This document shows, one piece after another, positions 9,344 to 41,452 of a stretch of 64,000 nt of DNA (its first letter is position 1; each line of letters opens with the position of its first letter). The position numbers were made by a program, and so were the translations under genes. Under the pieces are notes generated by a model. It was not told the origin of the DNA, searched no databases, and was given only the letters and a program-made list of their open reading frames with translations. Origin of the DNA: Candidatus Kapaibacterium sp. (GTDB lineage: Bacteria > Bacteroidota > Ignavibacteria > Kapaibacteriales > NICIL-2); assembly GCA_026003475.1 (NCBI GenBank), contig BPHJ01000001.1, forward strand, positions 256,545 to 320,544. The letters are read 5' to 3'.

Positions 9344-9382
9344 CCTACGTTGACATGTTTCACAAAAGCACGGAGTAGTCTC

Positions 9383-16279: not shown

Positions 16280-19200
16280 ATGAAACATGTGTCGTTTTTC
16301 TGTGCAGCCGTTCTTGGGGTTATCTTCACCGTTACGACCCCATCTTCCGCGCAGGTGGGCAGCCTGATCAACTACGGCGCTATCATCAAAGATTCTCTGC
16401 GCCTGGAAAATGCGGCTTCTTTTGTTCGCCTTCCATCGGACGGGTCACTCCGCTGGGGTGAGGACATGGTTGGAATGCTGGTAAGCGCTGGCTTGACAGT
16501 TTCTCGTACATGGACACTACCCGACGAAAGCGGTATCATCCTAACATCGGCGAGAACGTTCAGCGGCGACGTCAGTGGTGTGTACAACAACTTGCAGCTT
16601 GGCAGTGGCGTGGTCGGTACGGCCGAGCTTGCCGATGGTGCGGTGACGGATGCGAAGGTGAACGACGTTTCGTGGACGAAGATCACGGGAGCGCCGACGA
16701 GTTTTCCGCCGAGTGGGAGTGCTGGTGGTGATTTGACGGGGACGTATCCGAACCCGACGATAGCCAACGATGCGGTGACCAGTGCGAAGATTGCCGACGG
16801 GACGATCACCGATGCTGACATCAGCAGCAGTGCGGCGATAGCGGTTAGCAAGCTGGCACCGGGCAGCAATGGGCAAGTGTTGACGACGGTTGGTGGAGTG
16901 CCGACGTGGTCGAGTGTGAGCATCACGGAGACTGATCCGGTGTGGACGGCAGCGGAGCCCAGCTATGGGAACTTGACGCAGAACGATACGGTTTCGGGAA
17001 CGTGGACGTTTAGCAACGCAATCAACGGCAGCATCACAGGTAATGCGGCGACAGCGACGGCGTTGCAGACAGCGCGCAACTTTTCGCTATCGGGCGATGT
17101 GACGGCGCCGGCGGTGTCGTTTGATGGGACGGGGAACGTGACGTTGACGACGACGCTTGCCGATGGTTCAGTGAGCACGGCCAAGCTTGCCGATGGTGCG
17201 GTGACGGATGCGAAGGTGAACGACGTTTCGTGGACGAAGATCACGGGAGCGCCGACGAGTTTTCCGCCGAGTGGGAGTGCTGGTGGTGATTTGACGGGGA
17301 CGTATCCGAACCCGACGATAGCCAACGATGCGGTGACGAGTGCGAAGATTGCCGACGGGACGATCACCGATGCTGACATCAGCAGCAGTGCAGCGATAGC
17401 GGTCAGCAAGCTGGCGGCGGGCAGTGATGGGCAAGTGTTGACGACAGTGGGAGGAGTGCCGACGTGGTCGAGCGTGAGCATCACGGAGACTGATCCGGTG
17501 TGGACGGCGGCGGAGCCGAGTTATGGTAACTTGACGCAGAACGAGACGGTTTCGGGAACGTGGACGTTTAGCAACGCAATCAACGGCAGCATCACAGGTA
17601 ATGCGGCGACAGCGACGGCGTTGCAGACAGCGCGCAACTTTTCGCTATCGGGCGATGTGACGGCGCCGGCGGTGTCGTTTGATGGGACGGGGAACGTGAC
17701 GTTGACGACGACGCTTGCCGATGGTTCAGTGAGCACGGCCAAGCTTGCCGATGGTGCGGTGACGGATGCGAAGGTGAGCGATGTATCGTGGACGAAGATC
17801 ACGGGAGCGCCGACGAGTTTTCCGCCGAGTGGGAGTGCTGGTGGTGATTTGACGGGGACGTATCCGAACCCGACGATAGCCAACGATGCGGTGACGAGTG
17901 CGAAGATTGCCGACGGGACGATCACCGATGCTGACATCAGCAGCAGTGCAGCGATAGCAGTTAGCAAGCTGGCACCGGGCAGCAATGGGCAAGTGTTGAC
18001 GACAGTGGGAGGAGTGCCGACGTGGTCGAGCGTGAGCATCACGGAGACTGATCCGGTGTGGACGGCAGCGGAGCCCAGCTATGGGAACTTGACGCAGAAC
18101 GATACGGTTTCGGGAACGTGGACGTTTAGCAACGCAATCAACGGCAGCATCACAGGTAATGCGGCGACGGCGACGGCATTGCAGACAGCGCGCAACTTTT
18201 CGCTATCGGGCGATGTGACGTCGCCGGCGGTGTCGTTTGATGGGACGGGGAACGTGACGTTGACGACGACGCTTGCCAATGGTTCAGTGAGCACGGCCAA
18301 GCTTGCCGATGGTGCGGTGACGGATGCGAAGGTGAGCGATGTTTCGTGGACGAAGATCACGGGAGCGCCGACGAGTTTTCCGCCGAGTGGGAGTGCTGGT
18401 GGTGATTTGACGGGGACGTATCCGAACCCGACGATTGCCAACGATGCGGTGACGAGTGCGAAGATTGCCGACGGGACGATCACCGATGCTGACATCAGCA
18501 GCAGTGCAGCGATAGCGGTTAGCAAGCTGGCACCGGGCAGCAATGGGCAAGTGTTGACGACGGTGGGAGGAGTGCCGACGTGGTCGAGCGTGAGCATCAC
18601 GGAGACTGATCCGGTGTGGACGGCGGCGGAGCCGAGTTATGGTAACTTGACGCAGAACGAGACGGTTTCGGGAACGTGGACGTTTAGCAACGCAATCAAC
18701 GGCAGCATCACAGGTAATGCGGCGACAGCGACGGCGTTGCAGACAGCGCGCAACTTTTCGCTATCGGGCGATGTGACGGCGCCGGCGGTGTCGTTTGATG
18801 GGACGGGGAACGTGACGTTGACGACGACGCTTGCCAATGGTTCAGTGAGCACGGCCAAGCTTGCCGACGGTGCGGTGACGGATGCGAAGGTGAGCGATGT
18901 ATCGTGGGGGAAGATCACGGGAGCGCCGACGAGTTTTCCGCCGAGTGGGAGTGCTGGTGGTGATTTGACGGGGACGTATCCGAACCCGACGATAGCCAAC
19001 GATGCGGTGACCAGTGCGAAGATTGCCGATGGGACGATCACCGATGCTGACATCAGCAGCAGTGCGGCGATCGCGGTCAGCAAGCTTGCGGCGGGCAGTG
19101 ATGGGCAAATTCTCGTCACAAGTAGCGGTTCACCGCAATGGGCAAATGCAAGCACGCTCAGCGGTAGTTTCTGGGCACTCGGGGGCAATAGTGCTACTGC

Positions 19201-20023
19201 AGACCTGTCCCTGGGGACCACGAGCGATGACGATGTTGTATTCCTCCGGAACAATACTGAGGCGTTCCGTATCGGCTCTGTCAGTGGTAACCCTGTGCTC
19301 AACCTTGGTTCAGCAACTCCAGCGTATCGGATAGACTTGCCGAACAACTCGAACATTGCGATCGGGCGGATACGCGCGCAGGGGTACGCGACGTACTCAT
19401 CACGAGCGTGGAAGGAGGACATTCGTCCCATCGAGGGTGCCCTTGAGAAAGCACTTCGGCTGACGGGGGTACAATACCAGTGGAAGCCGGAGTATGGCGG
19501 CACGCGCGATATTGGGTTTGTGATGGAGGAGGTAGCGGAGGTAGTACCGGAGGTAGTAGACCGGGATCCGAAGACAGGCGAGTATCTTGGGATGGAGTAC
19601 AGTCGGTTGACGGCGTTGCTTGTGGAAGCGCTCAAGGAGGAACACCGCCGCAACGAGGAACTGCGTGCCGAGCTTGTGCAGTTGCGGCAGATGGTCGAGC
19701 AGCTCGCCACACGGCAGCAGGTAACCGCTGGCACATCACATATCACCGTTCGCGTTGAAGGTGACTGGCTTGGGCAAAACGTTCCCAACCCGCACGACGG
19801 AACGACGACGATACCGTGCTACGTTCCTGCAGGAGTTGGAAGCGCGGAGCTTGCCATCAGCGATGCAGCTGGGCGTCTGGTTCGTCGTGTTGTGCTCAGC
19901 GCACGTGATACGTGGACGAACGTAACGGTAGACATGTCACTCCTTGCGTCGGGGACGTACGAATACCAGCTCGTCTTCGACGGTCGTGTCGTTGCCAGCA
20001 AGCAGATGCAGCTGGTCAAGTAG
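16280..20023 (+). CDS. Phage-tail-fibre-like secreted protein (1247 aa): 4.4 tandem 186-aa repeats, then Peptidase-S74 intramolecular chaperone domain, then T9SS C-terminal sorting domain
   Basis: Signal peptide MKHVSFFCAAVLGVIFTVTTPSSAQ. The repeat unit contains …AKLADGAVTDAKVNDVSWTKITG…TSAKIADGTITDADISSSAAIAVSKL…, reminiscent of tail-fibre motifs. The S74 region is SSRAWKEDIRPIEGALEKALRLTGVQYQWKPEYGGTRDIGFVMEEVAEVVPEVV…YLGMEYSRLTALLVEALKEE. The CTD is NVPNPHDGTTTIPCYVPAGVGSAELAISDAAGRLVRRVVLS…SGTYEYQLVFDGRVVASKQMQLVK. Confidence 0.8.
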   Translation: MKHVSFFCAAVLGVIFTVTTPSSAQVGSLINYGAIIKDSLRLENAASFVRLPSDGSLRWGEDMVGMLVSAGLTVSRTWTLPDESGIILTSARTFSGDVSGVYNNLQLGSGVVGTAELADGAVTDAKVNDVSWTKITGAPTSFPPSGSAGGDLTGTYPNPTIANDAVTSAKIADGTITDADISSSAAIAVSKLAPGSNGQVLTTVGGVPTWSSVSITETDPVWTAAEPSYGNLTQNDTVSGTWTFSNAINGSITGNAATATALQTARNFSLSGDVTAPAVSFDGTGNVTLTTTLADGSVSTAKLADGAVTDAKVNDVSWTKITGAPTSFPPSGSAGGDLTGTYPNPTIANDAVTSAKIADGTITDADISSSAAIAVSKLAAGSDGQVLTTVGGVPTWSSVSITETDPVWTAAEPSYGNLTQNETVSGTWTFSNAINGSITGNAATATALQTARNFSLSGDVTAPAVSFDGTGNVTLTTTLADGSVSTAKLADGAVTDAKVSDVSWTKITGAPTSFPPSGSAGGDLTGTYPNPTIANDAVTSAKIADGTITDADISSSAAIAVSKLAPGSNGQVLTTVGGVPTWSSVSITETDPVWTAAEPSYGNLTQNDTVSGTWTFSNAINGSITGNAATATALQTARNFSLSGDVTSPAVSFDGTGNVTLTTTLANGSVSTAKLADGAVTDAKVSDVSWTKITGAPTSFPPSGSAGGDLTGTYPNPTIANDAVTSAKIADGTITDADISSSAAIAVSKLAPGSNGQVLTTVGGVPTWSSVSITETDPVWTAAEPSYGNLTQNETVSGTWTFSNAINGSITGNAATATALQTARNFSLSGDVTAPAVSFDGTGNVTLTTTLANGSVSTAKLADGAVTDAKVSDVSWGKITGAPTSFPPSGSAGGDLTGTYPNPTIANDAVTSAKIADGTITDADISSSAAIAVSKLAAGSDGQILVTSSGSPQWANASTLSGSFWALGGNSATADLSLGTTSDDDVVFLRNNTEAFRIGSVSGNPVLNLGSATPAYRIDLPNNSNIAIGRIRAQGYATYSSRAWKEDIRPIEGALEKALRLTGVQYQWKPEYGGTRDIGFVMEEVAEVVPEVVDRDPKTGEYLGMEYSRLTALLVEALKEEHRRNEELRAELVQLRQMVEQLATRQQVTAGTSHITVRVEGDWLGQNVPNPHDGTTTIPCYVPAGVGSAELAISDAAGRLVRRVVLSARDTWTNVTVDMSLLASGTYEYQLVFDGRVVASKQMQLVK
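16627..19095 (+). repeat. Tandem in-frame repeat array, period 558 bp (186 aa), ~4.4 copies, ~97% nucleotide identity
   Basis: The anchor 'gcttgccgatggtgcggtgacgg' recurs at 16627, 17185, 17743, 18301 and 18859, each exactly 558 nt apart. A few SNPs are distributed mosaically: N/S in AKV(N/S)DVSW, APGSNGQ/AAGSDGQ, QNDTVSG/QNETVSG, TAPAVSF/TSPAVSF. Confidence 0.95.
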
Positions 20024-20190: not shown

Positions 20191-22449
20191 ATGGCATTCG
20201 ATTTTTCGACGATTCGCCGCGTCTATGAACAATTGCCGGAGCGTCTTGCTGATGCACGTGGCATCCTCGGTCGGCCGATGACGCTTGCGGAAAAAATCCT
20301 CTATGCCCACATGGCGGCGTTGCCATCAGCACCGCCGATACGCGGACAGGATTACGTCGAGTTCTACCCCGACCGCGTTGCGATGCAGGATGCTACGGCA
20401 CAGATGGCGTTGCTGCAGTTCATGAGTGCGGGTATCCCGCGGGTTGCGGTTCCTACGACGGTACACTGCGACCACCTCATCCGAGCCGAGCGCGGAGCCA
20501 AAGAGGATCTTCAAACGGCGCTGATCGAAAACGATGAGGTCTTCAACTTCCTCGCTTCGGTTTCGAAAAAGTATGGCATTGGGTTCTGGAAGCCTGGTGC
20601 AGGTATCATCCATCAAGTGGTGCTCGAAAACTATGCCTTCCCCGGTGGCATGATGATTGGCACCGACTCTCACACACCCAATGCTGGCGGCTTGGGAATG
20701 CTTGCGATTGGTGTTGGGGGAGCCGATGCCGTGGACGTGATGGCGGGCATGCCATGGGAATTGCTCATGCCAAAGCATATCGGCGTACGCTTGACCGGAC
20801 GCATGAGTGGATGGACTGCACCAAAGGATGTGATTCTCAAGCTGGCTGGAATTCTCACGGTCAAAGGTGGGACCGGCGCGATCATCGAGTACTTCGGTGA
20901 TGGATGCGCAACCATCAGCGCGACGGGCAAAGCAACCATTTGCAACATGGGCGCTGAAGTTGGTGCGACAACCTCGATCTTCCCCTACGACGAGGCAATG
21001 GATCGCTACCTGCGCGCGACCGGCCGTTCTGACGTCGCCGATGCAGCACGCCCACTGGCAGAGTACCTCCGCCACGATGACGACGTCGAACGCAATCCGG
21101 AGAAGTACTTCGATCGCATCATCGAGATTGATCTTTCCACACTCGAACCGCACATCAACGGACCCTTCACGCCCGACCGTGCAATGCCAATCAGCGAGTT
21201 TGTCAAGGCTGTCGAGCAGAACGGATGGCCAGCCGATTTGCGAGTAGCGCTGATTGGCTCGTGTACGAACTCCTCGTATGAGGACATGACGCGCGTGGCC
21301 GAGATCGCCGACTATGCTGCTAAACACGGACTCAAAGCTAAGTGTGAGCTTACGATCACGCCGGGCTCTGAACAAATCCGCGCAACGATGGAACGCGATG
21401 GAATCCTGGAAAAACTCGAAGCAATTGGTGCAACCGTCCTCGCGAACGCATGCGGTCCGTGTATCGGGCAGTGGAAACGACACGACGTCAAAAAAGGCGA
21501 CAAAAACTCGATCATCACGTCCTTCAATCGGAACTTCAGCGGTCGTAACGACGGCAATCCCGATACGCATGCTTTCGTTGCATCACCTGAAACGGTCCTC
21601 GGGTTTGCCCTGACCGGTGATTTGCGCGTTGACTTCACCACGCAGCCGATCAACGGTTCGGTGCTCAATCCACCGCGAGGAGAAGAACTTCCAGCCCGTG
21701 GATTCGTGCCGGATCCCGAAGGGTACGTCCCCCCTGCCGAGGATGGCAGCACCATCGAAGTGATCATCAAACCCGATTCTCAGCGCTTGCAACGCCTGGA
21801 GCCATTTCCGCCACCCAGACCAGAAGAATTTATCGACATGGTGCTTTTGCTCAAAGTCAAGGGCAAGTGCACGACCGACCACATCTCCCCGGCGGGTCCG
21901 TGGCTTCGCTTCCGCGGACATTTGGACAACATCTCCAACAACATGTTCACCGGCGCAACCAATGCCTTCAATGGCAAGCTCAACTCAGCAAAGAACGTCT
22001 TTACCGGTGAGTATGCCGAAGTACCGCAGGTTGCGCGGGACTACAAAGCGCGTGGCGTCTCGTGGATCGTCGTTGGTGAGGAAAACTACGGCGAAGGTTC
22101 CTCGCGCGAACATGCCGCGATGGAACCGCGCTATTTGGGCGGGAAGGTGATTTTGGTCAAGTCGTTTGCGCGTATTCACGAGACCAACCTCAAAAAGCAG
22201 GGCATGCTACCGCTGGTATTCGACAATCCTGCCGACTACGACCTCATCGGCGAGGATGACCGTTTCACGCTCGATGTACGGCAGCTCCGTCCAGCAGAGC
22301 CGATGGAGTTGCTCATTCGAAAACCCGATGGAAGCGAGCATCGCATTCTCGTTCGGCATTCGATGAATGAGCACCAAATCGAGTGGTTCTGGGCGGGCAG
22401 CGCACTCAACCTGATGGCACGCCGCCTGCGCCAATCGTCGAATGCATAA
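20191..22449 (+). CDS. acnA: Aconitate hydratase (mitochondrial-type ~750-aa aconitase family)
   Basis: Aconitase signatures [12 protein letters not shown] and [11 protein letters not shown]; 4Fe-4S ligand cysteines. 752 aa. Confidence 0.85.
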
Positions 22450-22491
22450 GCAGTGGTTGTGTGCGTGCTGTAGGGCGTCGGACGGGTGCAG

Positions 22492-23430
22492 TTACCAGAG
22501 GGTAAGAGTGCTCCGCACCTCTGCAAACATTCCCCAGCTTGGTGCCAGTTGGACGCCGTTGGTCCGCTCGTAGATCGGCAGTTGAGCGCCGATGCGGAGC
22601 ACCAAGGGTTCCCATGCTGTCATGGCCAGCGATGGCAAAAGCTCGATGCGGAACGTTCCCGTTGCCGTTAGCGTGCGGTCGTCGATACGGTCGGGACCGG
22701 TCCACCGCCATCGGCTCAGTAAGACGGGGAGAATCGGCAATTCCCACTCTGTCGGGCTGAGGGCTACCAGTGCTTGCAGGTCGGTGCCCATCGTGCGCCC
22801 GTTGATGTTGGCGCCTGGCTGGCGAAATAACACTGAGAGTGTGGTCATCAGTGCGGGAGTTTCAGCACGATAACACCCCAAAAGCCACGCGAGCACATCC
22901 CAGCTACTTGTGCCTGGCTGCACGTCAATGGGCAGTTCGACCCCGTTTTCCTGTACACGATACTGGCCTGTTGGCATTTTGAGTCCACCTCCAACAGCCA
23001 AGCTCCAGGGCGATAGTGGTGAAGGTGGAAGAACGGAGAACTTGACTATTCCAAAGGCATCGCTCAGACCGGTGGCATGATACTGGGTCGAAAGTGTCGT
23101 CGTACCGTTGGAGATGTTGACTGTTCGCATCTTGTCGCTGAACGGTAGCACAGCCAGTACACTCCACCGTTCGGCAGGGGCGAACTCGAATTCCAGATTG
23201 AATGCGTGCGCATAGGCAACGCTCCCGTTGGGATTGGGTACACGCTTGGTGCCATCGAGCGTGCGATCCATGGCAGTGTAATTATAGACTGCTCCTACTG
23301 TTAGCGTGCCAGCTCCCAAACCCGCGCGTTCCATCCCACCAAGGAATGTGCCAGTACCACCACAGCAGCTCTGCGCATGCGCCCATACTCCACTAATCGC
23401 TACCAGCACAAAAAACAGTCGCATCACCAA
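22492..23430 (-). CDS. Outer-membrane beta-barrel protein of unknown function (possibly MetA/phenol-degradation-like transporter family)
   Basis: Signal peptide MVMRLFFVLVAISGVWAHAQ. Alternating amphipathic beta-strand pattern. 4-nt overlap with the upstream lipoprotein gene. Confidence 0.45.
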   Translation of the reverse strand: MVMRLFFVLVAISGVWAHAQSCCGGTGTFLGGMERAGLGAGTLTVGAVYNYTAMDRTLDGTKRVPNPNGSVAYAHAFNLEFEFAPAERWSVLAVLPFSDKMRTVNISNGTTTLSTQYHATGLSDAFGIVKFSVLPPSPLSPWSLAVGGGLKMPTGQYRVQENGVELPIDVQPGTSSWDVLAWLLGCYRAETPALMTTLSVLFRQPGANINGRTMGTDLQALVALSPTEWELPILPVLLSRWRWTGPDRIDDRTLTATGTFRIELLPSLAMTAWEPLVLRIGAQLPIYERTNGVQLAPSWGMFAEVRSTLTLW

Positions 23431-23774
23431 ACGTACACCTGAAACTCACGGGAATCACTTGCTTGGTACTGGTCGCGCACGATGACCTGCATTGTTGTCG
23501 AATTACCCGTGCAGCACGGTGCTGCAACGAGCTGCACACGATGGCCGCTGCCAACGATGCTCCCATCAGCTACTCGCCAGAAGTACTGCAACGTATCCTC
23601 ATCGGGGTCGCGTGCATAGCAAACAACGTCAACCGGTGTGCCGACCGAGACAATACCGCCGATGACAACACTATCAATCACCGGTGCCCGGTTCGTTGGT
23701 GGTGCAATAAGCGATGGAGAGTCTTGGGAGCAGGACAGCAGCACAACAGCTAAAAGGAGCAGCCCAACACGCAT
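23424..23774 (-). CDS. Small lipoprotein with Ig-like fold, co-transcribed with the downstream OMP
   Basis: Lipobox-like MRVGLLLLAVVLLSCSQ (the Cys follows LLS). The ORF extends upstream to 23867 without a convincing earlier start. Confidence 0.4.
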   Translation of the reverse strand: MRVGLLLLAVVLLSCSQDSPSLIAPPTNRAPVIDSVVIGGIVSVGTPVDVVCYARDPDEDTLQYFWRVADGSIVGSGHRVQLVAAPCCTGNSTTMQVIVRDQYQASDSREFQVYVW

Positions 23775-23892
23775 CGGTGATACGCTCCAGGTGTGGAACA
23801 TATGTAATGATACACTCAAAAATATGTAATTTTGTCGGTGAATCCTCCGCAGGGGGATTCTGGGCAAAGTTCAACTCACTTGAAGGTGTCCT

Positions 23893-24288
23893 ATGCGTTA
23901 CTTTCCGTTGTTGGGGCGAGTGTTGTTGTGCCTACTCTTTCTTGTTAGCGGGATAACCTTCCACTTTACCAGCGATGCGATCCAGTATGCCGAGGCGCAG
24001 GGTGTGCCGGCAGCATCGTTGCTGGTGCCGCTCAGCGGTGTGCTTGCAATTGTTGGAGCGCTCAGCGTGATGCTGGGGTACCGTGCAAAACTTGGTGCAT
24101 GGTTGCTGGTGATCTTTCTCGTGCCAGTAACGCTGATGATGCACAACTTCTGGGCAATCGCTGATCCGATGCAGCGGCAAGTCCAGATGATCATGTTCAT
24201 GAAAAATCTTGGGCTCCTTGGTGGAGTGCTGCTGATTGCTTACTGGGGAGCAGGGCCTATCAGCATGGACAACCGCCAGAGTCAGTAG
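23893..24288 (+). CDS. DoxX-family membrane protein
   Basis: Four predicted TM helices; LLGRVLLCLLFLVSGI…LGLLGGVLLIAYWG is typical of DoxX. 131 aa. Confidence 0.65.
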   Translation: MRYFPLLGRVLLCLLFLVSGITFHFTSDAIQYAEAQGVPAASLLVPLSGVLAIVGALSVMLGYRAKLGAWLLVIFLVPVTLMMHNFWAIADPMQRQVQMIMFMKNLGLLGGVLLIAYWGAGPISMDNRQSQ

Positions 24289-24422
24289 CGGCTCTCGGCG
24301 GTGATCATCACTGGCTTGAGTGCCCCACATCGTGATTCAAGAGTGTGGGGGAGAACCTTCTTTGCTTGTTGTCAGCCTATGTGCAAACAGGGTTTGGTGC
24401 GTAGGTTCGCAATTGGCCGTCG

Positions 24423-26126
24423 GTGACTGCCGATGGATGTTGGACGATAGTGTATGCCTCCGGTATGTCCGGCGTGGAGAAAATCGAGCGTATTCTTGCC
24501 GAACTTCGGCAGCAGGTGCAGCAGCATCCGTTGCTACGAAGTATGGTCGAACTGGTCGTTGCCGTTGGGGAAGAGCTCCTCCGGTCGAGTGAGGATGCAT
24601 CGGCTGCTGCTGAGTCGAATCACAAGCAGGATGCTGGTGGTCACTCCACAGCTCCGGCTACTGACAGCAGGAATGAGACGGGGGGAGCATCTCCGGAACA
24701 CAATCCACCCGCCGATGCAATTCGTGAGGAGGACCTTCGACGCCTCATCGAGCATTTTCAGGGTGGCAGTGTACCTGAACGGAACAACAAAAAGCAGACG
24801 CCAGCGACTGTCTCCGAACAGAGTCCTCCCATGTCGGAATATCCAAAGGAGCCTGCCTTTGATGTTGAGCTGGTCACCACACGTGCGCGGCTCAAAGCGG
24901 AAGTTGCGCGGTGGCGGGCCGATTGTCTCCGCGGTGAGGTGTCTGCCGAGGCAGAAACGCGGTACTACGAACGTGCGGTCCAACGCGCGCAAGCGCTACC
25001 CCAATGCTACCTGTGGATGCTGAACTTTACGGATCCGCCAACGCTCCTCGATTTTGTCGCCGACTGCTACGATGCGCTGGCTGAGGTCGCCGAGGTTATC
25101 CCCTTGATCCCGTGGGACCAATACCGCCCAGCGTGGGCAGAGCAGGTACTCGAGCTGACAGCCGCCGCACAGTCCGCACTGCATCGCGTTCTGCTGGATG
25201 CTGGGCTGGACCTTCAACGCTATCCAGACCCCGACCAGTACGCTGTTTACAACTGGCTTCAGTGGTACACCAAAACCTACCACAAGTACATCGCGCGGCA
25301 CATGACGCTCCGCGATCCAGCAGACTACACCCACATCACGGAGATCGTCGAGAAACTCGACGCACTCCGCGAACAGATGCCATCGAGTGCCTCGGCGCAG
25401 GGTGAGCAGCCATCGGCCCAACTCTCGGCAGAACGACCCACGGAACATCTGCCGACCGTCGAAGCGAAAAAGCATCTTCGCACGTTGCGGTACCATGTTG
25501 GCCAGATTCTGCGCCAACGGATCGATCCAGAGCACCACTGGTTACGCATCCGTCAAGAGATCGAAGCGCTCGTTACGCTGGGTGTTCCGCCGAGCAACGT
25601 TGAGTTGCGAGCTGTTCTCCTTCCGATCGTCGAAGATTTTCCCATCGATACCCATTACCGAACCACAGCAGTACAGCTTGTCCTCCGGGAGATTGCTCGC
25701 TACCGGATGCAACAATCTGGAACGGTTCCCGTTGTGGAAGAACCATCGCAACCAAGCGAGGAAGTTCTTGCTGTTCGGGCAGCACTCGAGGGGAAGTGCA
25801 TGGTGCTCGTCGGTGGGGATGAACGCCCTGCTATGCGAGAGGCAATTGAAGGAGCGTTCGGTTGTCGCCTTGAGTGGGTTCCCACTCGTCCGCATGAATC
25901 ACTGGAGCTGTTTGAGCCGTACATCAAACGCAGCGATGTTGCTGTTGTTCTGTTGGCGATACGCTGGGCCAGCCACAGTTACGCTGATGTTGCTGACCTC
26001 TGCAAACGGTATGGCCGGCCATTTGTGCGCCTCCCCGGTGGCTACAACCCCAATCAAATCGCCGCCCAAATACTCCAACAAGCGGGAGACACCCTCGGAT
26101 TGAATGGCTCCGGCGGCAGGACTTGA
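24423..26126 (+). CDS. Hypothetical protein with C-terminal DUF2325-like domain
   Basis: 567-aa ORF with protein-like composition. The C-terminal ~100 aa, KCMVLVGGDERPAMREAIEGAFGCRLEWVP…SDVAVVLLAIRWASHSYADVADLCKRYGRPFVRLPGG, matches my recollection of DUF2325. The N-terminal 450 aa are unrecognised. The 3' end overlaps tRNA-Asn on the opposite strand by 22 nt. Confidence 0.45.
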   Translation: MTADGCWTIVYASGMSGVEKIERILAELRQQVQQHPLLRSMVELVVAVGEELLRSSEDASAAAESNHKQDAGGHSTAPATDSRNETGGASPEHNPPADAIREEDLRRLIEHFQGGSVPERNNKKQTPATVSEQSPPMSEYPKEPAFDVELVTTRARLKAEVARWRADCLRGEVSAEAETRYYERAVQRAQALPQCYLWMLNFTDPPTLLDFVADCYDALAEVAEVIPLIPWDQYRPAWAEQVLELTAAAQSALHRVLLDAGLDLQRYPDPDQYAVYNWLQWYTKTYHKYIARHMTLRDPADYTHITEIVEKLDALREQMPSSASAQGEQPSAQLSAERPTEHLPTVEAKKHLRTLRYHVGQILRQRIDPEHHWLRIRQEIEALVTLGVPPSNVELRAVLLPIVEDFPIDTHYRTTAVQLVLREIARYRMQQSGTVPVVEEPSQPSEEVLAVRAALEGKCMVLVGGDERPAMREAIEGAFGCRLEWVPTRPHESLELFEPYIKRSDVAVVLLAIRWASHSYADVADLCKRYGRPFVRLPGGYNPNQIAAQILQQAGDTLGLNGSGGRT

Positions 26127-26181
26127 ACCTGCGACCCTCTGATTAACAGTCAGATGCTCTAACCAACTGAGCTACGCCGGA
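26105..26181 (-). tRNA. tRNA-Asn (anticodon GTT), CCA encoded
   Basis: Reverse complement folds as TCCGGCG-TA-GCTCAGTTGGTTAGAGC-A-TCTGA-CTGTTAA-TCAGA-GGGTC-GCAGGTTCAAGTCCTGC-CGCCGGA-G-CCA. Confidence 0.85.
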
Positions 26182-26241
26182 AGACGGGTTGCAAAAATAC
26201 AGCAGTATTGCCCCACTGTGCAAGAGCTGCGTGGAGTAGCC

Positions 26242-26937
26242 CTACTGTTCACGAAAGGGGGAGGTCTGCAGATGCTGCTTGATAGCGCGAATGCTCAACC
26301 ACGTGGCAATGCCTAATACCACCAGTGCGCCCAGCGTGATGAGTCCCGGATTTTCGTAGAACAAAAACACATCGTACAGGCCATGCGCAGTGACTGCGGA
26401 TGCCAGAGCTGCCAGGTGATACCCCCAGCGGCGCGAGGCAAATTTTGCATTGCCGAGAAAATAACCCATCAGCACGCCGTTGGCTGCGTGTGCCGGAACG
26501 GCGGTCACCATTCGCACCAAAGCCAGACCCACTGGTTCGGACTCTGCGCCGAACACATACAGGAGGTTCTCCAGCGTAGCAAAGCCCATTCCGACCATCA
26601 CGCAGTAGGTGATGCCGTCGTAGGGTTCATCGAAATCTGAGCGAGGGTACACATAGAGTCGGGCAACTAGATACTTTGCCGCCTCTTCGGTGAAAGCGAC
26701 GATGCCAAACGCACTCAGTACTGCCGAACCGAACACACTGCGATTGAGCGGTGCTATCGCACCCAATCCGATTTCGATCACGGCAACAGGCACAATAATC
26801 ACCGCACCCCAGAGAAAACACCCAATCACAAGGTCATGTGGCTCGCGGTCGAAGCGATCAAGCCACCAGACGACCCCAGCGATGACGATGCCCGGAGCAA
26901 CAGCTAACACAACAAGCCACGCCGCATCAACGTTCAT
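26242..26937 (-). CDS. PrsW-family intramembrane glutamic protease
   Basis: Motifs FTEEAAKY and GMGFATLEN (EExxK … FxxxE), multiple TM segments. Start chosen at MNVDAAW to avoid overlapping the divergent M16 gene; the ORF is open to 27177. Confidence 0.6.
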   Translation of the reverse strand: MNVDAAWLVVLAVAPGIVIAGVVWWLDRFDREPHDLVIGCFLWGAVIIVPVAVIEIGLGAIAPLNRSVFGSAVLSAFGIVAFTEEAAKYLVARLYVYPRSDFDEPYDGITYCVMVGMGFATLENLLYVFGAESEPVGLALVRMVTAVPAHAANGVLMGYFLGNAKFASRRWGYHLAALASAVTAHGLYDVFLFYENPGLITLGALVVLGIATWLSIRAIKQHLQTSPFREQ

Positions 26938-26958
26938 TGCCAATGTTCGGTAATTTCG

Positions 26959-28263
26959 ATGGTGTGCAAAAATGAACGTTCGCCGATGAACCGCCGCTCC
27001 TCCGAGCGCCAGCAAACCACTCAGGTGCTTGCCATGCCCTCGTGCACAGTGTTGCCATCGGGCGTGACAGTGGTCAGCGATTGTGTCGAGCATGTTCGCA
27101 CGGTGGCCGTTGGCATCTGGGTTGACTGTGGAAGCCGCAACGATACCATCCCTGGCATTGCTCACATGCTCGAGCATGTTCTCTTTCGCCGCTCAGCGCG
27201 GTATGCGGGAACCGAGCGGTCACGCGTAGCAGAAATGCTTGGGGCGTACCTGAATGCTTCGACGTCGAAGGAAGTCACAAGCTACTACGCTCGTGGACTT
27301 GCCGAGCACACCGAGCGCTTGATGGATTTGCTGGCCGAGCTGGTTTTCGCGCCAGCCTTTACACCGCAGGACGTGGAGAAAGAACGCAGCGTGATCATCG
27401 AGGAATTGCACAGCTACGACGACGACCCCGAAGAAGTCGTCTGCGACGAGCTTGATCGAGTACTCTTTGGCAATCATCCGTTGGGGCATCCCATCGCTGG
27501 CAGTCGCGAGAGTGTCAGCAGCATCACCGCAGACGATTTGATGGAGTTCTACCGCCGATGGTACACCGCTGCCAACTGCGCTATCATCATCAGCGGACCG
27601 ATTCAGCACAGCGACGCAGTTGCCATGGTTGAGCGGGTCCTTTCCCGCTGGAGGCCGCTGCGAGGGTCCGTGCCCATCGCTCCCGAACGGTCACCACGGC
27701 GGCTGGCTGCACGTCGAGGTATGCGCAAAACGATTGCTCGCTCGTTCCAACAGGCGCACTGTGCAGTGGGAATTCAAACTCCAGGTGCACGAAGTCCGCA
27801 GCGCTATGGACTTGCGCTGCTGAATATTCTCTTTGGTGACAGCGCAAGCTCCCGGTTGTACCGTCGCTTACGCGAGCATCGTGCCCTTGCGTATACGGTG
27901 TATTCGTCGTTGCAGTTACTGAGCGATTGTGGGCAACTGGTGATTTATGCCGGATTGCGTCCGGATCGTGTTGACAGTGCGCTGGCTGCCCTCGAAGCAG
28001 AGATCGAGCGACTGGGAACGCACCCTCCGACGCCAACGGAATTTCGGCGTGCACGGCAGCAGCTACGGACATCGCTCCTGATGAGCACCGAGAGCTTGTC
28101 GGCGCGGATGCATGCAATCGCGCGCATGCTCTTCGAGGAAGGGAAGCTCGAGCCGCTTGACGCAATTGCAACGGCGATCGAGCAAACAACGCTGGAAGAG
28201 GTCTGCTCCTTAGCTGTACAGCTTGCTAATTGGCGCACGTGGTCGCTGGTGCTCTGCCGATAG
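26959..28263 (+). CDS. M16-family (pitrilysin/insulinase-like) zinc peptidase
   Basis: Inverted zinc motif HMLEHVLF (HxxEH), and N-terminal …TTQVLAMPSCTVLPSGVTVVS, typical of M16. Start may be at 26986 or 27034. Confidence 0.8.
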   Translation: MVCKNERSPMNRRSSERQQTTQVLAMPSCTVLPSGVTVVSDCVEHVRTVAVGIWVDCGSRNDTIPGIAHMLEHVLFRRSARYAGTERSRVAEMLGAYLNASTSKEVTSYYARGLAEHTERLMDLLAELVFAPAFTPQDVEKERSVIIEELHSYDDDPEEVVCDELDRVLFGNHPLGHPIAGSRESVSSITADDLMEFYRRWYTAANCAIIISGPIQHSDAVAMVERVLSRWRPLRGSVPIAPERSPRRLAARRGMRKTIARSFQQAHCAVGIQTPGARSPQRYGLALLNILFGDSASSRLYRRLREHRALAYTVYSSLQLLSDCGQLVIYAGLRPDRVDSALAALEAEIERLGTHPPTPTEFRRARQQLRTSLLMSTESLSARMHAIARMLFEEGKLEPLDAIATAIEQTTLEEVCSLAVQLANWRTWSLVLCR

Positions 28264-28266
28264 CGC

Positions 28267-29154
28267 TTAGTGCGCGCGGGGAATCGCTGCATCAGCGCTC
28301 CAGAGCAGCTTCTGCCGAAGCACGTCGAAGTAGGTTGTGTCGGCACGCTTGATCAAGCGTGCAGTGCACTGCGATCGGCGAATCGTGCAGCGCATATTGG
28401 GTTCGAAGGGTGCGAGCTGCTGCCCATCGGCAACGAGCGATGCAGCATGGCTTTCAGGATCGAGCAGGAGAGTAATCTCCGATGTATCGCTCACAACTAA
28501 GGGGCGGAGCGTCAGCATATGCGGGCAAATCGGGACCACCGCGAGAACCTGCGCTGAGGGTGCAATGATTGGTCCGCCACACGAAAGCGAATACGCCGTC
28601 GAACCGGTCGGTGTTGTAACAATCAGTCCATCGGCGCGGTAGCGGGCGATGTAGTGTTCGTCCACCCAAGCGTGGATGGTGATCATGCGGGACGAATCGC
28701 GCTTTTCAATGGCAAATTCGTTGAGAGCGTAGAGCATTGTTGGCTTGTCGTCGAGCTCGATGGTGGTTTCAACCAGCGCTCGATCCACGATGCGATACCG
28801 TCCGCCGAGGATGTCGGCGATGGTAGAGCGGAGATTGTCGGCGGGGAACTCAGCTAAGAAACCCAGCTTGCCAAGGTTGACGCCCAGCAATGGCAGATCG
28901 CTATCGGCAAGGCGACGCGCGCATGCGAGCATGGTGCCATCACCCCCAAAGCACATGACCACATCAGCAAAGCGGCCGAATTCTTCCAGCGGCAGCGCTT
29001 CGACGCGCTCTGCGATCGCCGGGACCATCCGCGCTTTGACTTCTGGCTCGACACACACCTCGGCACCCTGTTCGAGCAATACTTCCACTGCTTCAACAAC
29101 GCGGCGAAGGGCATCAGTCTTGCCTAAGTTCACGTAGAGTCCGATGCGGTTCAT
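28267..29154 (-). CDS. nadK: NAD(+) kinase
   Basis: GGDGTML motif (CFGGDGTMLACARRL) and NLGKLGFL. 295 aa. Confidence 0.9.
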   Translation of the reverse strand: MNRIGLYVNLGKTDALRRVVEAVEVLLEQGAEVCVEPEVKARMVPAIAERVEALPLEEFGRFADVVMCFGGDGTMLACARRLADSDLPLLGVNLGKLGFLAEFPADNLRSTIADILGGRYRIVDRALVETTIELDDKPTMLYALNEFAIEKRDSSRMITIHAWVDEHYIARYRADGLIVTTPTGSTAYSLSCGGPIIAPSAQVLAVVPICPHMLTLRPLVVSDTSEITLLLDPESHAASLVADGQQLAPFEPNMRCTIRRSQCTARLIKRADTTYFDVLRQKLLWSADAAIPRAH

Positions 29155-29444
29155 GTCAGGCGCTCCTCCGATGGCGGGGCAGATTGGGTAGTGGCAGCAT
29201 CCCGCACCCGAACATAGGCAAGCCGAAGCTGGGTCAGCGACTGGAGGAGGAACTGTTCTTCGTCCTGGTTGCGGGCAGCACGCGTGCGCTCTTCGATCAC
29301 CTCCAATAGTTCAATGGCAGCCCGTGCAGCATCGAGTTCCACCGTGGGTTGGTTGGTCAAGGGATTGGGAAGCTCGCCCAAGGCAATCAACGCTTGATGC
29401 ACAAACAGCGCTCCAACATCGCGTAGGTCCGGACGCCGGCTCAT
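29151..29444 (-). CDS. DUF1844-like small protein
   Basis: FVHQALIALGELPNPLTNQPTVELDAARAAIELLEVIEERTRAARNQDEEQFLLQSLTQLRLAYV fits my recollection of the DUF1844 pattern. Translationally coupled on both sides: ATGA overlap with nadK and TAATG with pntA-II. Confidence 0.4.
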   Translation of the reverse strand: MSRRPDLRDVGALFVHQALIALGELPNPLTNQPTVELDAARAAIELLEVIEERTRAARNQDEEQFLLQSLTQLRLAYVRVRDAATTQSAPPSEERLT

Positions 29445-29761
29445 TATTTGGTCGTTGGACGATGACGAAACATTTCCAGCATGCGATCAGTGACGACAAA
29501 TCCACCGACGACGTTGAGCGTGCCCAAAACGACTGCGATAAAACCCAATGCTTGAGCAAACAGGTTTTCTGGCGATGCATGCCCGAGCACGATAATCGCG
29601 CCGATGAGTACGACTCCATGAATGGCATTGGCTCCCGACATCAACGGCGTATGGAGTACCGATGGCACTTTCGCAATTACCTCGACACCCACGAAGATCG
29701 AAAGAATCAGCACGTACACCATCTCGATGTTCGCGCCGATGAAGGTCACAAGTGATTCCAT
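29444..29761 (-). CDS. pntAB: Proton-translocating NAD(P) transhydrogenase subunit alpha part 2 (PntA-II, membrane segment) — orphan
   Basis: …LHTPLMSGANAIHGVVLIGAIIVLG…ALGFIAVVLGTLNVVGGFVVTDRMLEMFRHR aligns convincingly with the E. coli PntA C-terminal TM domain ([25 protein letters not shown]…GGFTVTQRMLKMF). No pntAA or pntB is adjacent. Confidence 0.75.
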   Translation of the reverse strand: MESLVTFIGANIEMVYVLILSIFVGVEVIAKVPSVLHTPLMSGANAIHGVVLIGAIIVLGHASPENLFAQALGFIAVVLGTLNVVGGFVVTDRMLEMFRHRPTTK

Positions 29762-29821
29762 CCTCATCATCAACGGGTCGTTCGACGGCAGCGAAACTAC
29801 GAAGGCTGCTCCCATCGCGAG

Positions 29822-30406
29822 TTGGAACTCTATCAGCGGCTGGCATGGTTAGAGCCTGTGGTATTTTCGATGTGCATGTTGGACGTTTCCGATACTGTCA
29901 TGATCGTGTTTCCTGCGGTGATTGCCACCGCGATGGTCCTCAGTGGTGGTGGAAGTGCACCGAACGTTGGATCGAAAGCGCCTGATTTCCGCGCTGCATC
30001 TACTGCTGGGACGCTGCAACTGAGCAGCTTGCGTGGCAAGTGGGTCGTGTTGTACTTCTATCCCAAGTCATTCACCCCAGGCTGCACGGCTGAGTCGTGT
30101 TCGTTGCGGGATGGATTCGATTCGCTGCGCACGCTCAATGCTACCATTCTGGGGGTGAGCACCGATGACCTGGAGACGCAGCAACGGTTCAAGAAAGAGT
30201 ATGCCTTGCCCTTCGAGCTGGTTGCCGATACCGATAAGCGCGTCGTCGAAGCCTTCGGCACCAGCGGAATGCTGGGTTTTGCCAAGCGGCGAACCTTTAT
30301 CATTGATCCGGAAGGCACCATTCGCGCTATTATCGAGGATGTGGACACCCGCCACCACGCCGAGCAAGTGCACGCGATGCTTGCACAGTTGCAGCAAGCC
30401 AAATAG
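29822..30406 (+). CDS. bcp: Peroxiredoxin, Bcp-type (AhpC/TSA family thiol peroxidase)
   Basis: GSKAPDFRAAS…GKWVVLYFYPKSFTPGCTAESCSLRD contains the peroxidatic Cys motif. Exact start uncertain (29822, 29873 or 29897). Confidence 0.8.
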   Translation: MELYQRLAWLEPVVFSMCMLDVSDTVMIVFPAVIATAMVLSGGGSAPNVGSKAPDFRAASTAGTLQLSSLRGKWVVLYFYPKSFTPGCTAESCSLRDGFDSLRTLNATILGVSTDDLETQQRFKKEYALPFELVADTDKRVVEAFGTSGMLGFAKRRTFIIDPEGTIRAIIEDVDTRHHAEQVHAMLAQLQQAK

Positions 30407-31198: not shown

Positions 31199-33616
31199 TT
31201 AGAAGCTGTAGCGCAGTCCGAGTGCAAGCTGGAGCCGCTCGACGGTCCAGGTCGCATCACGGAGAACACTCCCGAGCGGGAGGACGTACTGAACTGCCAG
31301 CGTTGCTGTCCACTGTTGGGTGTGAGGTATCGGTGCCGCAAAACCGAATCCGCCGTAGAGTTCGGGAATGAATGCGGCTGTTGCTGCGTCGCGTTGTGCG
31401 GTCATGGTGCCAGGTACGATGGCATCGGCAAGTGGTGAAGGGAGAACAAACCGTCGCTCCAGGTCAAATGCCGAGGATAGCGGGATTGCTCCTTGCAGGC
31501 CACCGCTCAGGTACAGCTCGTAGATACGCGAGCCACTTTGCTTGGTCAAAAGCACCCACTCTGCACCAATTCCGATTGCCAGCATCGGTGCGCGGGGGAT
31601 CAGTCGCGTTTCTGCTTGAACAACAACTAGGGAATCGTTTGCAAGCCGAATGTGTGTGGTGCTGGTATCCGGTGCCGCCAGATACTGTGCAAAAGGTTGC
31701 AAGCTCAGTCGGGCGGTCAAGCGGAGAGCATCGCTTATCGAGTACCCGCCGCTCACACTAATGCCGATCGCTCCACCGTAAGCGTTCGATGTCGGACGGG
31801 GCAGGCGGATTTCGCCGGTTGCACTCAACGAGCTGGTGTGGTAGACAGCATTGGCGGTCCCCCATAGGCCAAGATGCCAAGGTGTCCGTGGTGGGCAAGA
31901 AAATCCGCTGGTGAATTCGAAGCTGCGGCGCTGGTGGTTGTAGCAGTACGTGTAGGTAACCACCGAACGATTCCCCGCGGCATCAATAAGTGCCAGTACA
32001 AGCTGGCCATCCTGTTCCAGATCGAGGGGATGAACGTTGAATTCTGCTTGTGGCTGTCCGCGCTCGATACGGGGGAGATATGCACGCAAGTTCCGCGCCT
32101 GGAGTGGTGTGATGCTATCGAGACCGCTATCGGTGGGGCGATCGTCGCGAACGATCACACGGAGCGCCTTCCCCTGGGATGTGATTTGAAATGCACTCTG
32201 CGGTGGCAGTCGGTCGCGGAGAGTGTCGAGAACAAAAAATGTCTGCCCACCCATCGTGCCATAGGCATCGTAGGCATCGCTACGGTAGCCGAAGCCATAG
32301 GAATACAGTCCGAACGGCTCATCACCGGTGATGGTGTGTGTACCGTAGCTGAGCCGAACATGTGCCACAAAATAGCTGCTGATACCGATGCGCTCAAAGC
32401 TGGTTGCGGGAATGGGGCGGCCGTCCAAGCGGATTGTGCCAATAGCTTCCTCACGCGCGACGATGTTGACGTAATGATCCCATGAACCCTGTACGGGTGT
32501 TGCAATGCGGTAGCGGTCAACGAACTGCTGTGTTGGGGAAATCAGAATCATCATCGGATCACCGACTTCGTCACCATTGCCGAAGCCTTGGGAGTACTGC
32601 GCAACCAGGATTGGCTTATCTGCCGATAGTTGGACGTGGTCTGTGGCATTGGGTTCTTCGTAGTACTCCCCAGCGTTGAGGATAGCAATGAGTGTTTGGT
32701 CTTTGAATACGCGTGTCCGGTCCTGGCTGGCAAGGATGCGATACGTGTAGCGTGAACGTCCGCGGAGCTTGCCGATGTAGTACTGCTTGCCCCAGGCGCT
32801 GATGGGCGGGAGCTGCTCGACAAGGTGGTTGCAGGCTTTGGTGCCCGGCGGGACGTAGGCACAGGTATGCCCGCTGAAGACGGCGATGGGTTTGGTGGCT
32901 TTGATGAGCGTGCCGGTCAGATCGCCCGTGCCTGTGGCGAAGTATTGCGCACGGACTTGATAGACTTGTCCCCGATCGAGGGTGATGGTGTAGCGCTCGT
33001 AGGCGCCGTGCCTATCGGTGGTCGGAGTCGTTGGGGTGATCTCCACTTGCGTATCATCCTCCGTGGCAATGATCGCAAACAGTGGTGCCAAGACTGCCGA
33101 CAACTTGCTGTAACAGAACGCGCGGTATTCAGTGCCAAGCACACTGACGGGAAGGGCAAGGTAGGTGTCGGTTGTCTGGATGCGATGATTGAGTGCATAG
33201 ACGGAGATGGGTGCAGTGCTTTGGATGTGGAGCGCTCGGTTCTTGATGCGGGGGAAGGTATCGAGCTCGGCTTCAGGCGTGATCGGGACGCTACCGATGG
33301 TGCCTCCCTTGATCCGCAACGAATGGCGGAAACCGAGCGCTGGAATTTCGAGCAGCACATCAGCATCGTCTTCGGCCGTGATGAACACCTCCAGCGAGGC
33401 GGGCTCGTAGCTGCCAGGTTTGTTGGGGTCTTCTTCGCGGAAGTTCTTCATGAAGCAGAGCCAAAACTCCGTGCCTTCGGAGTTCAGAATACGATACCGC
33501 GCTGCTGTGTCGGCTCCCTGGGCCCAAAGTCGAGCGCTTACCCCGGAGACAACAACAAGAGTGCAGCCAATCCACGCCAGGATACGGAGTGCGTTTTTCA
33601 CTTCCCAACCACGCAT
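31199..33616 (-). CDS. Secreted protein: IgGFc-binding-protein-N-terminal-like domain (~480 aa) fused to a C-terminal outer-membrane beta-barrel (~300 aa, ends …LGLRYSF)
   Basis: Signal peptide-like N-terminus. Motif GTEFWLCFMKN and ~450-aa homology to the N-terminal half of the 41453..44416 protein. The C-terminal region has alternating hydrophobic beta-strands (AIGISVSGGYSIS, LAIGIGAEWVLL, WTATLAVQYVLPL) and a terminal Phe. Confidence 0.55.
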   Translation of the reverse strand: MRGWEVKNALRILAWIGCTLVVVSGVSARLWAQGADTAARYRILNSEGTEFWLCFMKNFREEDPNKPGSYEPASLEVFITAEDDADVLLEIPALGFRHSLRIKGGTIGSVPITPEAELDTFPRIKNRALHIQSTAPISVYALNHRIQTTDTYLALPVSVLGTEYRAFCYSKLSAVLAPLFAIIATEDDTQVEITPTTPTTDRHGAYERYTITLDRGQVYQVRAQYFATGTGDLTGTLIKATKPIAVFSGHTCAYVPPGTKACNHLVEQLPPISAWGKQYYIGKLRGRSRYTYRILASQDRTRVFKDQTLIAILNAGEYYEEPNATDHVQLSADKPILVAQYSQGFGNGDEVGDPMMILISPTQQFVDRYRIATPVQGSWDHYVNIVAREEAIGTIRLDGRPIPATSFERIGISSYFVAHVRLSYGTHTITGDEPFGLYSYGFGYRSDAYDAYGTMGGQTFFVLDTLRDRLPPQSAFQITSQGKALRVIVRDDRPTDSGLDSITPLQARNLRAYLPRIERGQPQAEFNVHPLDLEQDGQLVLALIDAAGNRSVVTYTYCYNHQRRSFEFTSGFSCPPRTPWHLGLWGTANAVYHTSSLSATGEIRLPRPTSNAYGGAIGISVSGGYSISDALRLTARLSLQPFAQYLAAPDTSTTHIRLANDSLVVVQAETRLIPRAPMLAIGIGAEWVLLTKQSGSRIYELYLSGGLQGAIPLSSAFDLERRFVLPSPLADAIVPGTMTAQRDAATAAFIPELYGGFGFAAPIPHTQQWTATLAVQYVLPLGSVLRDATWTVERLQLALGLRYSF

Positions 33617-34374
33617 GGTGCGATGAAAACGCGGCTATCGGTGCGGAACCAGAGGTGATACACTCCCGCTCCTGTTGCTGTGCGTTCAATCGGCAGTGCG
33701 ATCGTGTGCGAACCTACCGGTGTCGGGGGAAGTTGCCAGCGCCCAACTTCTCGGCCGAGGGGATCGAACAACGCTACTTCTGGTGCTGCTTCGCGATCGA
33801 GCCAGAACGTCGCATTGATGCGGTCTCCGTCAACGGGGTTTGGGAAGACTGGACCAAATGCCTGCTCCTGGCTCAGTTTCAGGGGTGTTGCTGGTTCCAA
33901 AACGAGCGTTCCGCCCTGCGATTGGACTGCGCGCTGGAGACCATTGGCCGTAAGGTCCACGACGGCAAGCACCGCAGGCGAAGTGCCACTCCAAAGGGCA
34001 GTACAGTGTAGGAGCAGTTCGGCTGAATCAAGAGCACCAGTGACAAGAACACGAATGCGAAGTACACCATCGGAGCCGCTGGTGTCGTCGGCGATGATCG
34101 TTGTAACCATGCGTTGCGGAAACCTTGCCGCAACCGAATCTATACTAAGCGCTGCGCGAGTATAGCGCAACTGGACTTGCAGGACGTCGCCCCGCTGCAG
34201 TGGCAGAGCGAGCACGACCGGCGCAACGGCAAGCGTACCGCGAGCAAGTGTGGTGTCGGGTAACCGAACATGCACTTGTGCCTGCAGCAGCAGCGGTGCA
34301 GTGCACAATCCGAAGAGCAGGTAACGCAGCACTATCGGTTGCAAATGGTGAGTGCAAGCAAAAATACGCCCCAC
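33598..34374 (-). CDS. Secreted protein with T9SS C-terminal sorting domain, co-transcribed upstream of the IgGFc/beta-barrel gene
   Basis: C-terminal FPNPVDGDRINATFWLDREAAPEVALFDPLGREVGRWQLP…GAGVYHLWFRTDSRVFI is a type-A CTD. 19-nt overlap with the downstream gene. Confidence 0.5.
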   Translation of the reverse strand: MGRIFACTHHLQPIVLRYLLFGLCTAPLLLQAQVHVRLPDTTLARGTLAVAPVVLALPLQRGDVLQVQLRYTRAALSIDSVAARFPQRMVTTIIADDTSGSDGVLRIRVLVTGALDSAELLLHCTALWSGTSPAVLAVVDLTANGLQRAVQSQGGTLVLEPATPLKLSQEQAFGPVFPNPVDGDRINATFWLDREAAPEVALFDPLGREVGRWQLPPTPVGSHTIALPIERTATGAGVYHLWFRTDSRVFIAPCVVGK

Positions 34375-36153: not shown

Positions 36154-36379
36154 CGGTTGCTTAATTCGAGCTGGACTAAGGGCAGAGCATTCCTGGTGAC
36201 CGTGGATTTGCAGTCGTGTCGGCAGTTATGCATACCCCGATGTTCCCTCCATAAAGGATGTTGCGTGTTGGTAATCCTTCCGTAACTGTTCGATAACTGC
36301 CCAGCAATGCCCGCCTAACGTTGGAGGGGGAGTTTCGCACCTGGTTCGTGTGTGGTTGTTTCATCTCAATCAGGTTGCG

Positions 36380-41370: not shown

Positions 41371-41452
41371 ATGCGAAACCATCGGTACTGGTACTGTGTT
41401 ACTGTCGTGAGCTGGTATTTTTACATCCGTCTGCTCCATGATGGAGGCTGTA

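Follow-up and report, generated by a model that had tools for sequence, protein, structure and literature searches.

In one Kapaibacterium-like lineage, the gene pntAB for the alpha2 subunit of a three-polypeptide, proton-translocating NAD(P) transhydrogenase has most probably been relocated, in functional form, into an operon with a DUF1844 gene and the NAD kinase gene nadK, and its product most probably assembles with PntB and PntAA subunits encoded elsewhere. In sequence, PntAB is a typical PntAB/alpha2 protein; the oddity is the gene order.

The analyzed window is a 64-kb stretch of uniform base composition from the contig of Candidatus Kapaibacterium sp. KatS3mg039 (2,159,245 bp). The source organism is placed in Kapabacteria (formerly OPB56), a lineage of the Bacteroidota/Chlorobi group. 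The open reading frames of the window include three minus-strand genes arranged head to tail: pntAB (29444-29761; alpha2 subunit, 105 aa), which opens the block, the DUF1844 gene (29151-29444; 97 aa, PF08899), and nadK (28267-29154; NAD kinase, 295 aa, PF01513 and PF20143). The stop codon of pntAB and the start codon of the DUF1844 gene have one base in common (TAATG), and the first four bases of nadK are the last four of the DUF1844 gene (ATGA). GenBank carries the first two genes as KatS3mg039_0254 (pntAB) and KatS3mg039_0253 (DUF1844). The block is flanked by two plus-strand genes: an M16-family peptidase gene (26959-28263; PF00675 and PF05193), convergent with nadK, the two stop codons lying 3 bp apart, and a gene for a BCP/PrxQ-type peroxiredoxin (29822-30406; AhpC-TSA, E=5.6e-36; true start probably near 29900), divergent from pntAB. 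The sequence-only reading of this locus had named the genes pntA-II, DUF1844, nadK, and a divergent bcp, and had described the TAATG and ATGA overlaps. Since the reading frames and both overlaps are present as described and all four genes have the corresponding Pfam matches, this observation is confirmed in every detail.

The pntAB product matches the PF12769 (PNTB_4TM) profile with E=7.2e-33 and a score of 113.3 bits (cut-off 26.2), and the match spans positions 2-84 of the 85 in the profile; the initial alignment of the 105-aa frame with PntA thus survives a profile search. Of the NCBIfam PntA models, only the C-terminal part (positions 425-510) is matched, which is what an alpha2 subunit encoded as a separate protein should show. 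The protein contains three hydrophobic segments at approximately residues 12-32, 44-62, and 67-91. With the alpha2 subunit of Thermus thermophilus (4o9p_C and 4o93_A, E=5e-27), it shares 53% identity over 86 aligned residues within PntAB residues 15-102, and with PntAB from the canonical pntAA-pntAB-pntB operon of Dinghuibacter, 74% identity over the full length. In an alignment of homologues, the family motifs HTPLMSGANAIHGVV and LGTLNVVGGFVVTDRMLEMF are intact.

The start codon of pntAB deserves a correction. The open frame continues upstream to an ATG at 29815, and the GenBank model KatS3mg039_0254 accordingly has 123 aa, with an 18-codon N-terminal extension (29762-29815, minus strand). 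Homologues of PntAB align only from MES... onward, corresponding to position 29761, and the tblastn alignment with Dinghuibacter PntAB begins exactly there. Given the alignment of homologues and the presence of a promoter-like motif inside the extension (see below), the real start of pntAB is 29761, and the extension is probably not coding. Gene models of pntAB in related genomes bear equally unconserved extensions of 144-184 aa. Start-codon errors are thereby flagged in several deposited pntAB annotations.

The two other members of the block are assigned to their families by profile searches. The nadK product matches the N-terminal (E=1e-19, 71 bits) and C-terminal (E=3e-33, 115 bits) NAD_kinase domains of Pfam, and its NCBIfam NAD kinase matches reach E=8e-80, yet stay under the equivalog cut-offs. 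Its translation bears CFGGDGTML, NEFAIEK, and TPTGSTAYSLS, which contain the GGDG, NE, and TPTGSTAY motifs, respectively. The DUF1844 product matches PF08899 with E=2.5e-15 (56.8 bits, cut-off 27). AlphaFold2 models it as a three-helix bundle (mean pLDDT 88), simple and, by prediction, soluble. A comparison of the model with PDB gave no fold match at E<=0.001, so the fold yields no functional hint. A word-indexed protein search with the DUF1844 protein retrieved only eight close orthologues; with a profile built from eight orthologues, the family comprised about 4150 clusters at 50% identity (E<=1e-3), all of small proteins. Within the clade, pairwise identity of DUF1844 orthologues is 45-89%. 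The sole distant metagenome locus among the matches listed (L098) has no nadK or pnt gene near its DUF1844 gene, and hence the DUF1844-nadK link may be lineage-specific.

The sequence-only reading had pointed to the conservation of this gene order in relatives as a check, and the order is indeed kept in six further independent assemblies. The pntAB-DUF1844-nadK block with its overlapping stops and starts is thus found in seven independent assemblies and four upstream contexts: in addition to the window, it is present in KatS3mg040 (BPHK01000001.1, a 2.19-Mb contig), GCA_900175145.1, GCA_033578815.1, GCA_053494195.1, an ENA metagenome contig, and a Logan assembly. The first gene of the block is pntAB in 7/7 loci, and the M16 peptidase gene occupies the same position in all seven. 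The genes upstream of pntAB are bcp in two loci (the window and L005), pheS together with a gene encoding a 536-aa protein in three, a Pyr_redox_2 gene in one, and a glycosyltransferase gene in one. Because these neighbours vary between loci, the three-gene block itself is the conserved unit; the peroxiredoxin gene is a neighbour and no conserved part of it. A peroxiredoxin gene next to pntAB in two of the seven contexts does fit a redox theme, though it is not conserved.

When the 150-nt regions preceding pntAB were aligned across the seven loci, one conserved element emerged, the remainder being unalignable. In the window, this element is CCTTCGTAGTTTCGCTGCCG (29786-29805, minus strand), with the core GTAGTTTCGC at 29791-29800. 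The core is invariant in 7/7 loci, approximately 30 nt ahead of the pntAB ATG, although the upstream genes differ. It is similar to the Bacteroidota -7 promoter box TAnnTTTG, and CCTTCGTAGTTTCGCTGCCG is a putative promoter element of pntAB-DUF1844-nadK. Three copies of the motif with one mismatch occur in the window, at 24401, 33708, and 36329, each shortly ahead of a gene that has the same orientation; the number of copies is not above chance, and so the promoter reading drawn from these copies is suggestive only. Inside the three-gene unit, matches to sigma-70-type promoters and to terminators did not exceed chance, and an Rfam search of the locus gave no family match.

The partner genes are absent from the vicinity of the block. 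The best hit in a tblastn search of the whole window with Dinghuibacter PntAA and PntB had E=1.3, and Pfam analysis of 37 ORFs of the window (nearly all of those of at least 200 aa) detected no AlaDh_PNT or PNTB domain; the 2003-aa ORF at 9350-15361, outside the Pfam scan, was covered by tblastn. The initially noted absence of pntAA and pntB therefore holds within the 64-kb window. The same is observed for the six related loci, where no PntAA or PntB was detected within 6-10 kb of the block by tblastn at E<=1.

On a broader scale, a scan of the genome collection for PntAB yielded at least 80 loci, mostly from Bacteroidia. The canonical pntAA-pntAB-pntB order is observed in 72 of the 80 Bacteroidota loci listed. 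In four loci, one on the complete Hanamia chromosome and three on Flavobacteriales contigs, pntAB and pntB occur with no pntAA nearby (tblastn, E<=1), which demonstrates that the pnt genes can be dispersed in Bacteroidota. The metagenome-assembled genome P_KAPA1 (L087), labelled Candidatus Kapaibacterium and having a GC content of 58.5%, contains a full canonical pnt operon; hence, the transhydrogenase appears to exist in the group. When the PntB protein of P_KAPA1 was used as a query, five close relatives were followed by a flat series of Bacteroidia proteins at 64-68% identity (ranks 6-120). No protein of KatS3mg039, KatS3mg040, HR20, or 'Chlorobi bacterium' was among these best 120 matches, outside which a match at about 62% would fall. 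The same 120 matches were screened for an arginine-rich composition, and the two top candidates proved to come from ordinary canonical operons. Another metagenome-assembled Kapaibacterium genome, STL-BAC57 (JAXLVN010000001.1), has a solitary pntAB on a 1.58-Mb contig in yet another context; either dispersed pnt genes are the rule in this class, or an orphan alpha2 is common there. Most probably, pntAA and pntB reside elsewhere in the 2.16-Mb genome.

Additional evidence comes from the pattern of constraint along the protein. We compared 24 distinct PntAB sequences of the Kapaibacterium-like (KatS3-type) clade, that is, those clustering with five loci verified to carry pntAB-DUF1844-nadK, with 160 distinct canonical PntAB sequences, 76 of them verified beside pntB and the others classed by similarity. 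Per-site entropies in the two sets are strongly correlated (Spearman 0.73, p=2e-17), and 35 positions are invariant with the same residue in both. The motifs HTPLMSxxNAIxG in the second helix and GGFxVTxRMLxMF at the end of the third are invariant in 24/24 distinct clade sequences and identical to those of the 160 canonical sequences. Only two canonically conserved positions are relaxed in the clade, F23 (I/F) and M59 (L/M), and both changes are conservative. In the canonical enzyme, the alpha2 helices pack against the membrane domain of PntB, as seen in the Thermus structures. With the helices packing on PntB, the simplest reading of the retained constraint pattern is that PntB is still present; as the constrained sites are the same as in the subunits encoded beside PntB, nothing suggests a new function of PntAB.

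These data bear directly on the main alternative, in which pntAB is a true orphan: pntAA and pntB were lost, and alpha2 was retained in a new role, such as tethering the DUF1844 protein and/or NadK to the membrane or acting as their proton-sensing partner. We regard this scenario as unlikely. A new job should shift the constrained sites, and the 35 canonical invariant positions are unchanged at a correlation of 0.73. The clade PntAB is also still 72-79% identical to those Bacteroidia PntAB proteins that are encoded beside PntB, and neither NadK nor the DUF1844 protein, a predicted soluble three-helix bundle, has a membrane-docking feature. What speaks for an orphan is the lack of a partner gene in the window or near the block in seven genomes, together with the lack of a clade PntB among the best 120 matches to the P_KAPA1 protein; however, the inspected DNA makes up only about 3% of the genome. 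The strictly conserved translational coupling to the DUF1844 gene and nadK and the solitary pntAB of STL-BAC57 likewise fit such a scenario. In its functional form, with the catalytic subunits lost and alpha2 serving as the membrane part of a DUF1844/NAD-kinase module that, for instance, links NADP+ synthesis to the membrane or the proton gradient, it appears improbable. The related earlier proposal of a regulatory membrane anchor for NadK and DUF1844 is without support, the site constraints being those of PntB-adjacent subunits.

It had also been proposed that pntAB is a decaying remnant, which would make it a pseudogene surviving the loss of the transhydrogenase; the signature of selection refutes this. 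Pairwise dN/dS of pntAB among five orthologues is 0.04-0.19, with synonymous sites mostly saturated, and equals 0.07 for the sole pair with unsaturated dS (L001 and L006). The corresponding pairwise values are 0.12-0.24 for the DUF1844 gene and 0.03-0.09 for nadK. Decay is favoured by one observation only, that no partner gene is nearby; the pntAB frame is open in every genome, purifying selection is seen despite the saturation of synonymous sites, every motif invariant in canonical PntAB is kept, and both the promoter-like motif and the stop/start overlaps are conserved. The pseudogene reading, which retains a negligible probability, was rejected because of purifying selection and the invariant canonical motifs.

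An assembly or binning artefact that parted pntAB from pntAA and pntB, conceivable for a metagenome-assembled genome, is almost certainly not the explanation and was rejected, since the identical arrangement recurs on the 2.16-Mb contig, the 2.19-Mb contig, and in five more independent assemblies from NCBI, ENA, and Logan, the junctions being overlapping codons and not contig ends, and base composition being uniform over the window.

Among the three possibilities raised by the sequence-only reading, partners encoded elsewhere is therefore the best-supported, though indirectly, and comparison with known systems places the relocated gene in context. Like the window PntAB, alpha2 of Thermus (4o9p, 4o9u, 4o93) and of the Rhodospirillum rubrum type is a separate polypeptide some 100 aa long that contains three hydrophobic helices, and all of them share the motifs HTPLMSxxNxIxG and GG(F/Y)xVTxRMLEMF. 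In Thermus and R. rubrum, the alpha2 gene is located between pntAA and pntB. Unlike these, pntAB of the window is beside neither partner and is the first gene of an operon shared with DUF1844 and nadK. The proteins from canonical Bacteroidota operons, such as those of Dinghuibacter silviterrae and Runella defluvii, are 72-79% identical to the window PntAB and have the same invariant sites. Differences from them are confined to a few conservative lineage-specific substitutions, for example VLIGAIIVLG in place of VIIGAIIVMG, and to the C-terminal tail, which is arginine-rich in the window protein and lysine-rich in canonical Bacteroidota. The pnt genes are likewise not all contiguous in Hanamia (OZ255711.1) and the Flavobacteriales loci L068, L081, and L094. 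There, however, the gene for the soluble dI component is displaced and pntAB stays with pntB, whereas in the window it is the small membrane subunit that is displaced, and it resides in an unrelated operon. We found no description of a Kapabacteria/OPB56 transhydrogenase or of such a pntAB-nadK gene order in the literature, the papers found on the Katase hot spring, Thermonerobacter, and deep aquifers are silent on pnt genes, and DUF1844 came up in one paper.

The most likely evolutionary and functional scenario for the relocated gene is as follows. In one Kapaibacterium-like lineage, pntAB would have moved out of a pntAA-pntAB-pntB operon to head a coupled pntAB-DUF1844-nadK transcription unit with its own promoter-like element. 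Judging from gene order, the three genes may be co-transcribed from the upstream motif. The alpha2 subunit would assemble in the membrane with PntB (dII/dIII) and dock PntAA (dI), and the resulting complex, driven by the proton gradient, would reduce NADP+ at the expense of NADH. Made together with NadK, a limiting subunit of the transhydrogenase would be supplied in step with NADP+ synthesis, so that NADP+ production and the capacity for its reduction would be coordinated. A link of pntAB to NADP(H) homeostasis is a reasonable suggestion from the strictly conserved synteny.

In summary, what is new here is a lineage-specific gene order, a modest but real quirk. If relocation with partners encoded elsewhere is the true explanation, we observe a transhydrogenase subunit that is ordinary in itself but unusually located, and an example of how the gene for one subunit of a membrane complex can join the operon of an enzyme with a neighbouring function: NAD kinase supplies the NADP+ reduced by the transhydrogenase. 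If the partner genes are truly absent, the locus would matter much more, as a highly conserved orphan alpha2 would mean that this classic bioenergetic subunit has a function not yet known. The widespread and uncharacterised DUF1844 family, in turn, is for the first time reproducibly connected to NADP metabolism by its genomic context, in a single lineage.

NadK is unusually conserved in the clade. The NadK encoded in the window (28267-29154, minus strand) and its orthologues in the related loci L001 and L005-L007 share 85-98% amino-acid identity, and dN/dS for these genes is 0.03-0.09 despite saturated synonymous sites. The adjoining DUF1844 protein is less conserved, at 45-89% identity. The neighbourhood at 20191-28263 of the window also recurs beside the operon, in L001, L005, L007, L101, and L102, its gene set being incomplete in some of these loci. 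It includes genes for an aconitase, a DoxX protein, a PrsW-family protease, and the M16 peptidase, as well as two genes of about 310 and 567 aa that lack Pfam domains.

The deposited pntAB models of the clade start too far upstream, as observed in the window (extra segment 29762-29815, minus strand), in L001 and L101, and in the proteins P0010-P0021. The models are 123, 144, 151, and 184 aa long, compared with a conserved length of 105-106 aa, and in the window the extra codons span the conserved promoter-like motif. This motif, GTAG(G/T)TTCGC, or a variant with one mismatch, is found directly upstream of four genes of the window, each time in the orientation of the gene: at 24401-24410 and 36329-36338 on the plus strand and at 29791-29800 and 33708-33717 on the minus strand. 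Four occurrences, against 3.25 expected, do not exceed what chance would give in the window. The motif may be a promoter element of this lineage.

The window also contains a cluster of five ORFs for very large putative surface proteins. Two are paralogues with the IgGFc_binding domain (31199-33616, minus strand; 41438-44416, plus strand), and the other three are on the plus strand. The 1247-aa protein (16280-20023) combines DUF5907 repeats and a Peptidase_S74 chaperone domain with a type-IX secretion tail; a second protein with such a tail is encoded at 11-2326, and the 2003-aa ORF (9350-15361) is a further candidate. The GC skew is strong (+0.19) in the 16-20 kb stretch. The dnaA gene lies at 7181-8668 (plus strand). 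Cumulative GC skew climbs steadily over the entire 64 kb without turning, so that skew gives no sign of a replication origin in the window.

Elsewhere, pntAB-pntB pairs without a nearby pntAA are observed in the Hanamia sp. chromosome OZ255711.1 (L031) and in Flavobacteriales MAGs (L068, L081, and L094). No pntAA was found within 10 kb upstream in three of these four loci; for L081 the available upstream sequence is 1.7 kb long, and it lacks pntAA too. The dI gene is necessarily either located elsewhere or absent. In Ca. Kapaibacterium sp. STL-BAC57 (JAXLVN010000001.1, locus L023), a solitary pntAB (10001-10309, 102 aa) retains every motif, and pntAA, pntB, DUF1844, and nadK are all absent within 10 kb. 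Upstream on the same strand is a gene for a large membrane protein with a putative thioredoxin-like C-terminal part. This pntAB gives the class a second example of a displaced alpha2 gene, independent of the first.
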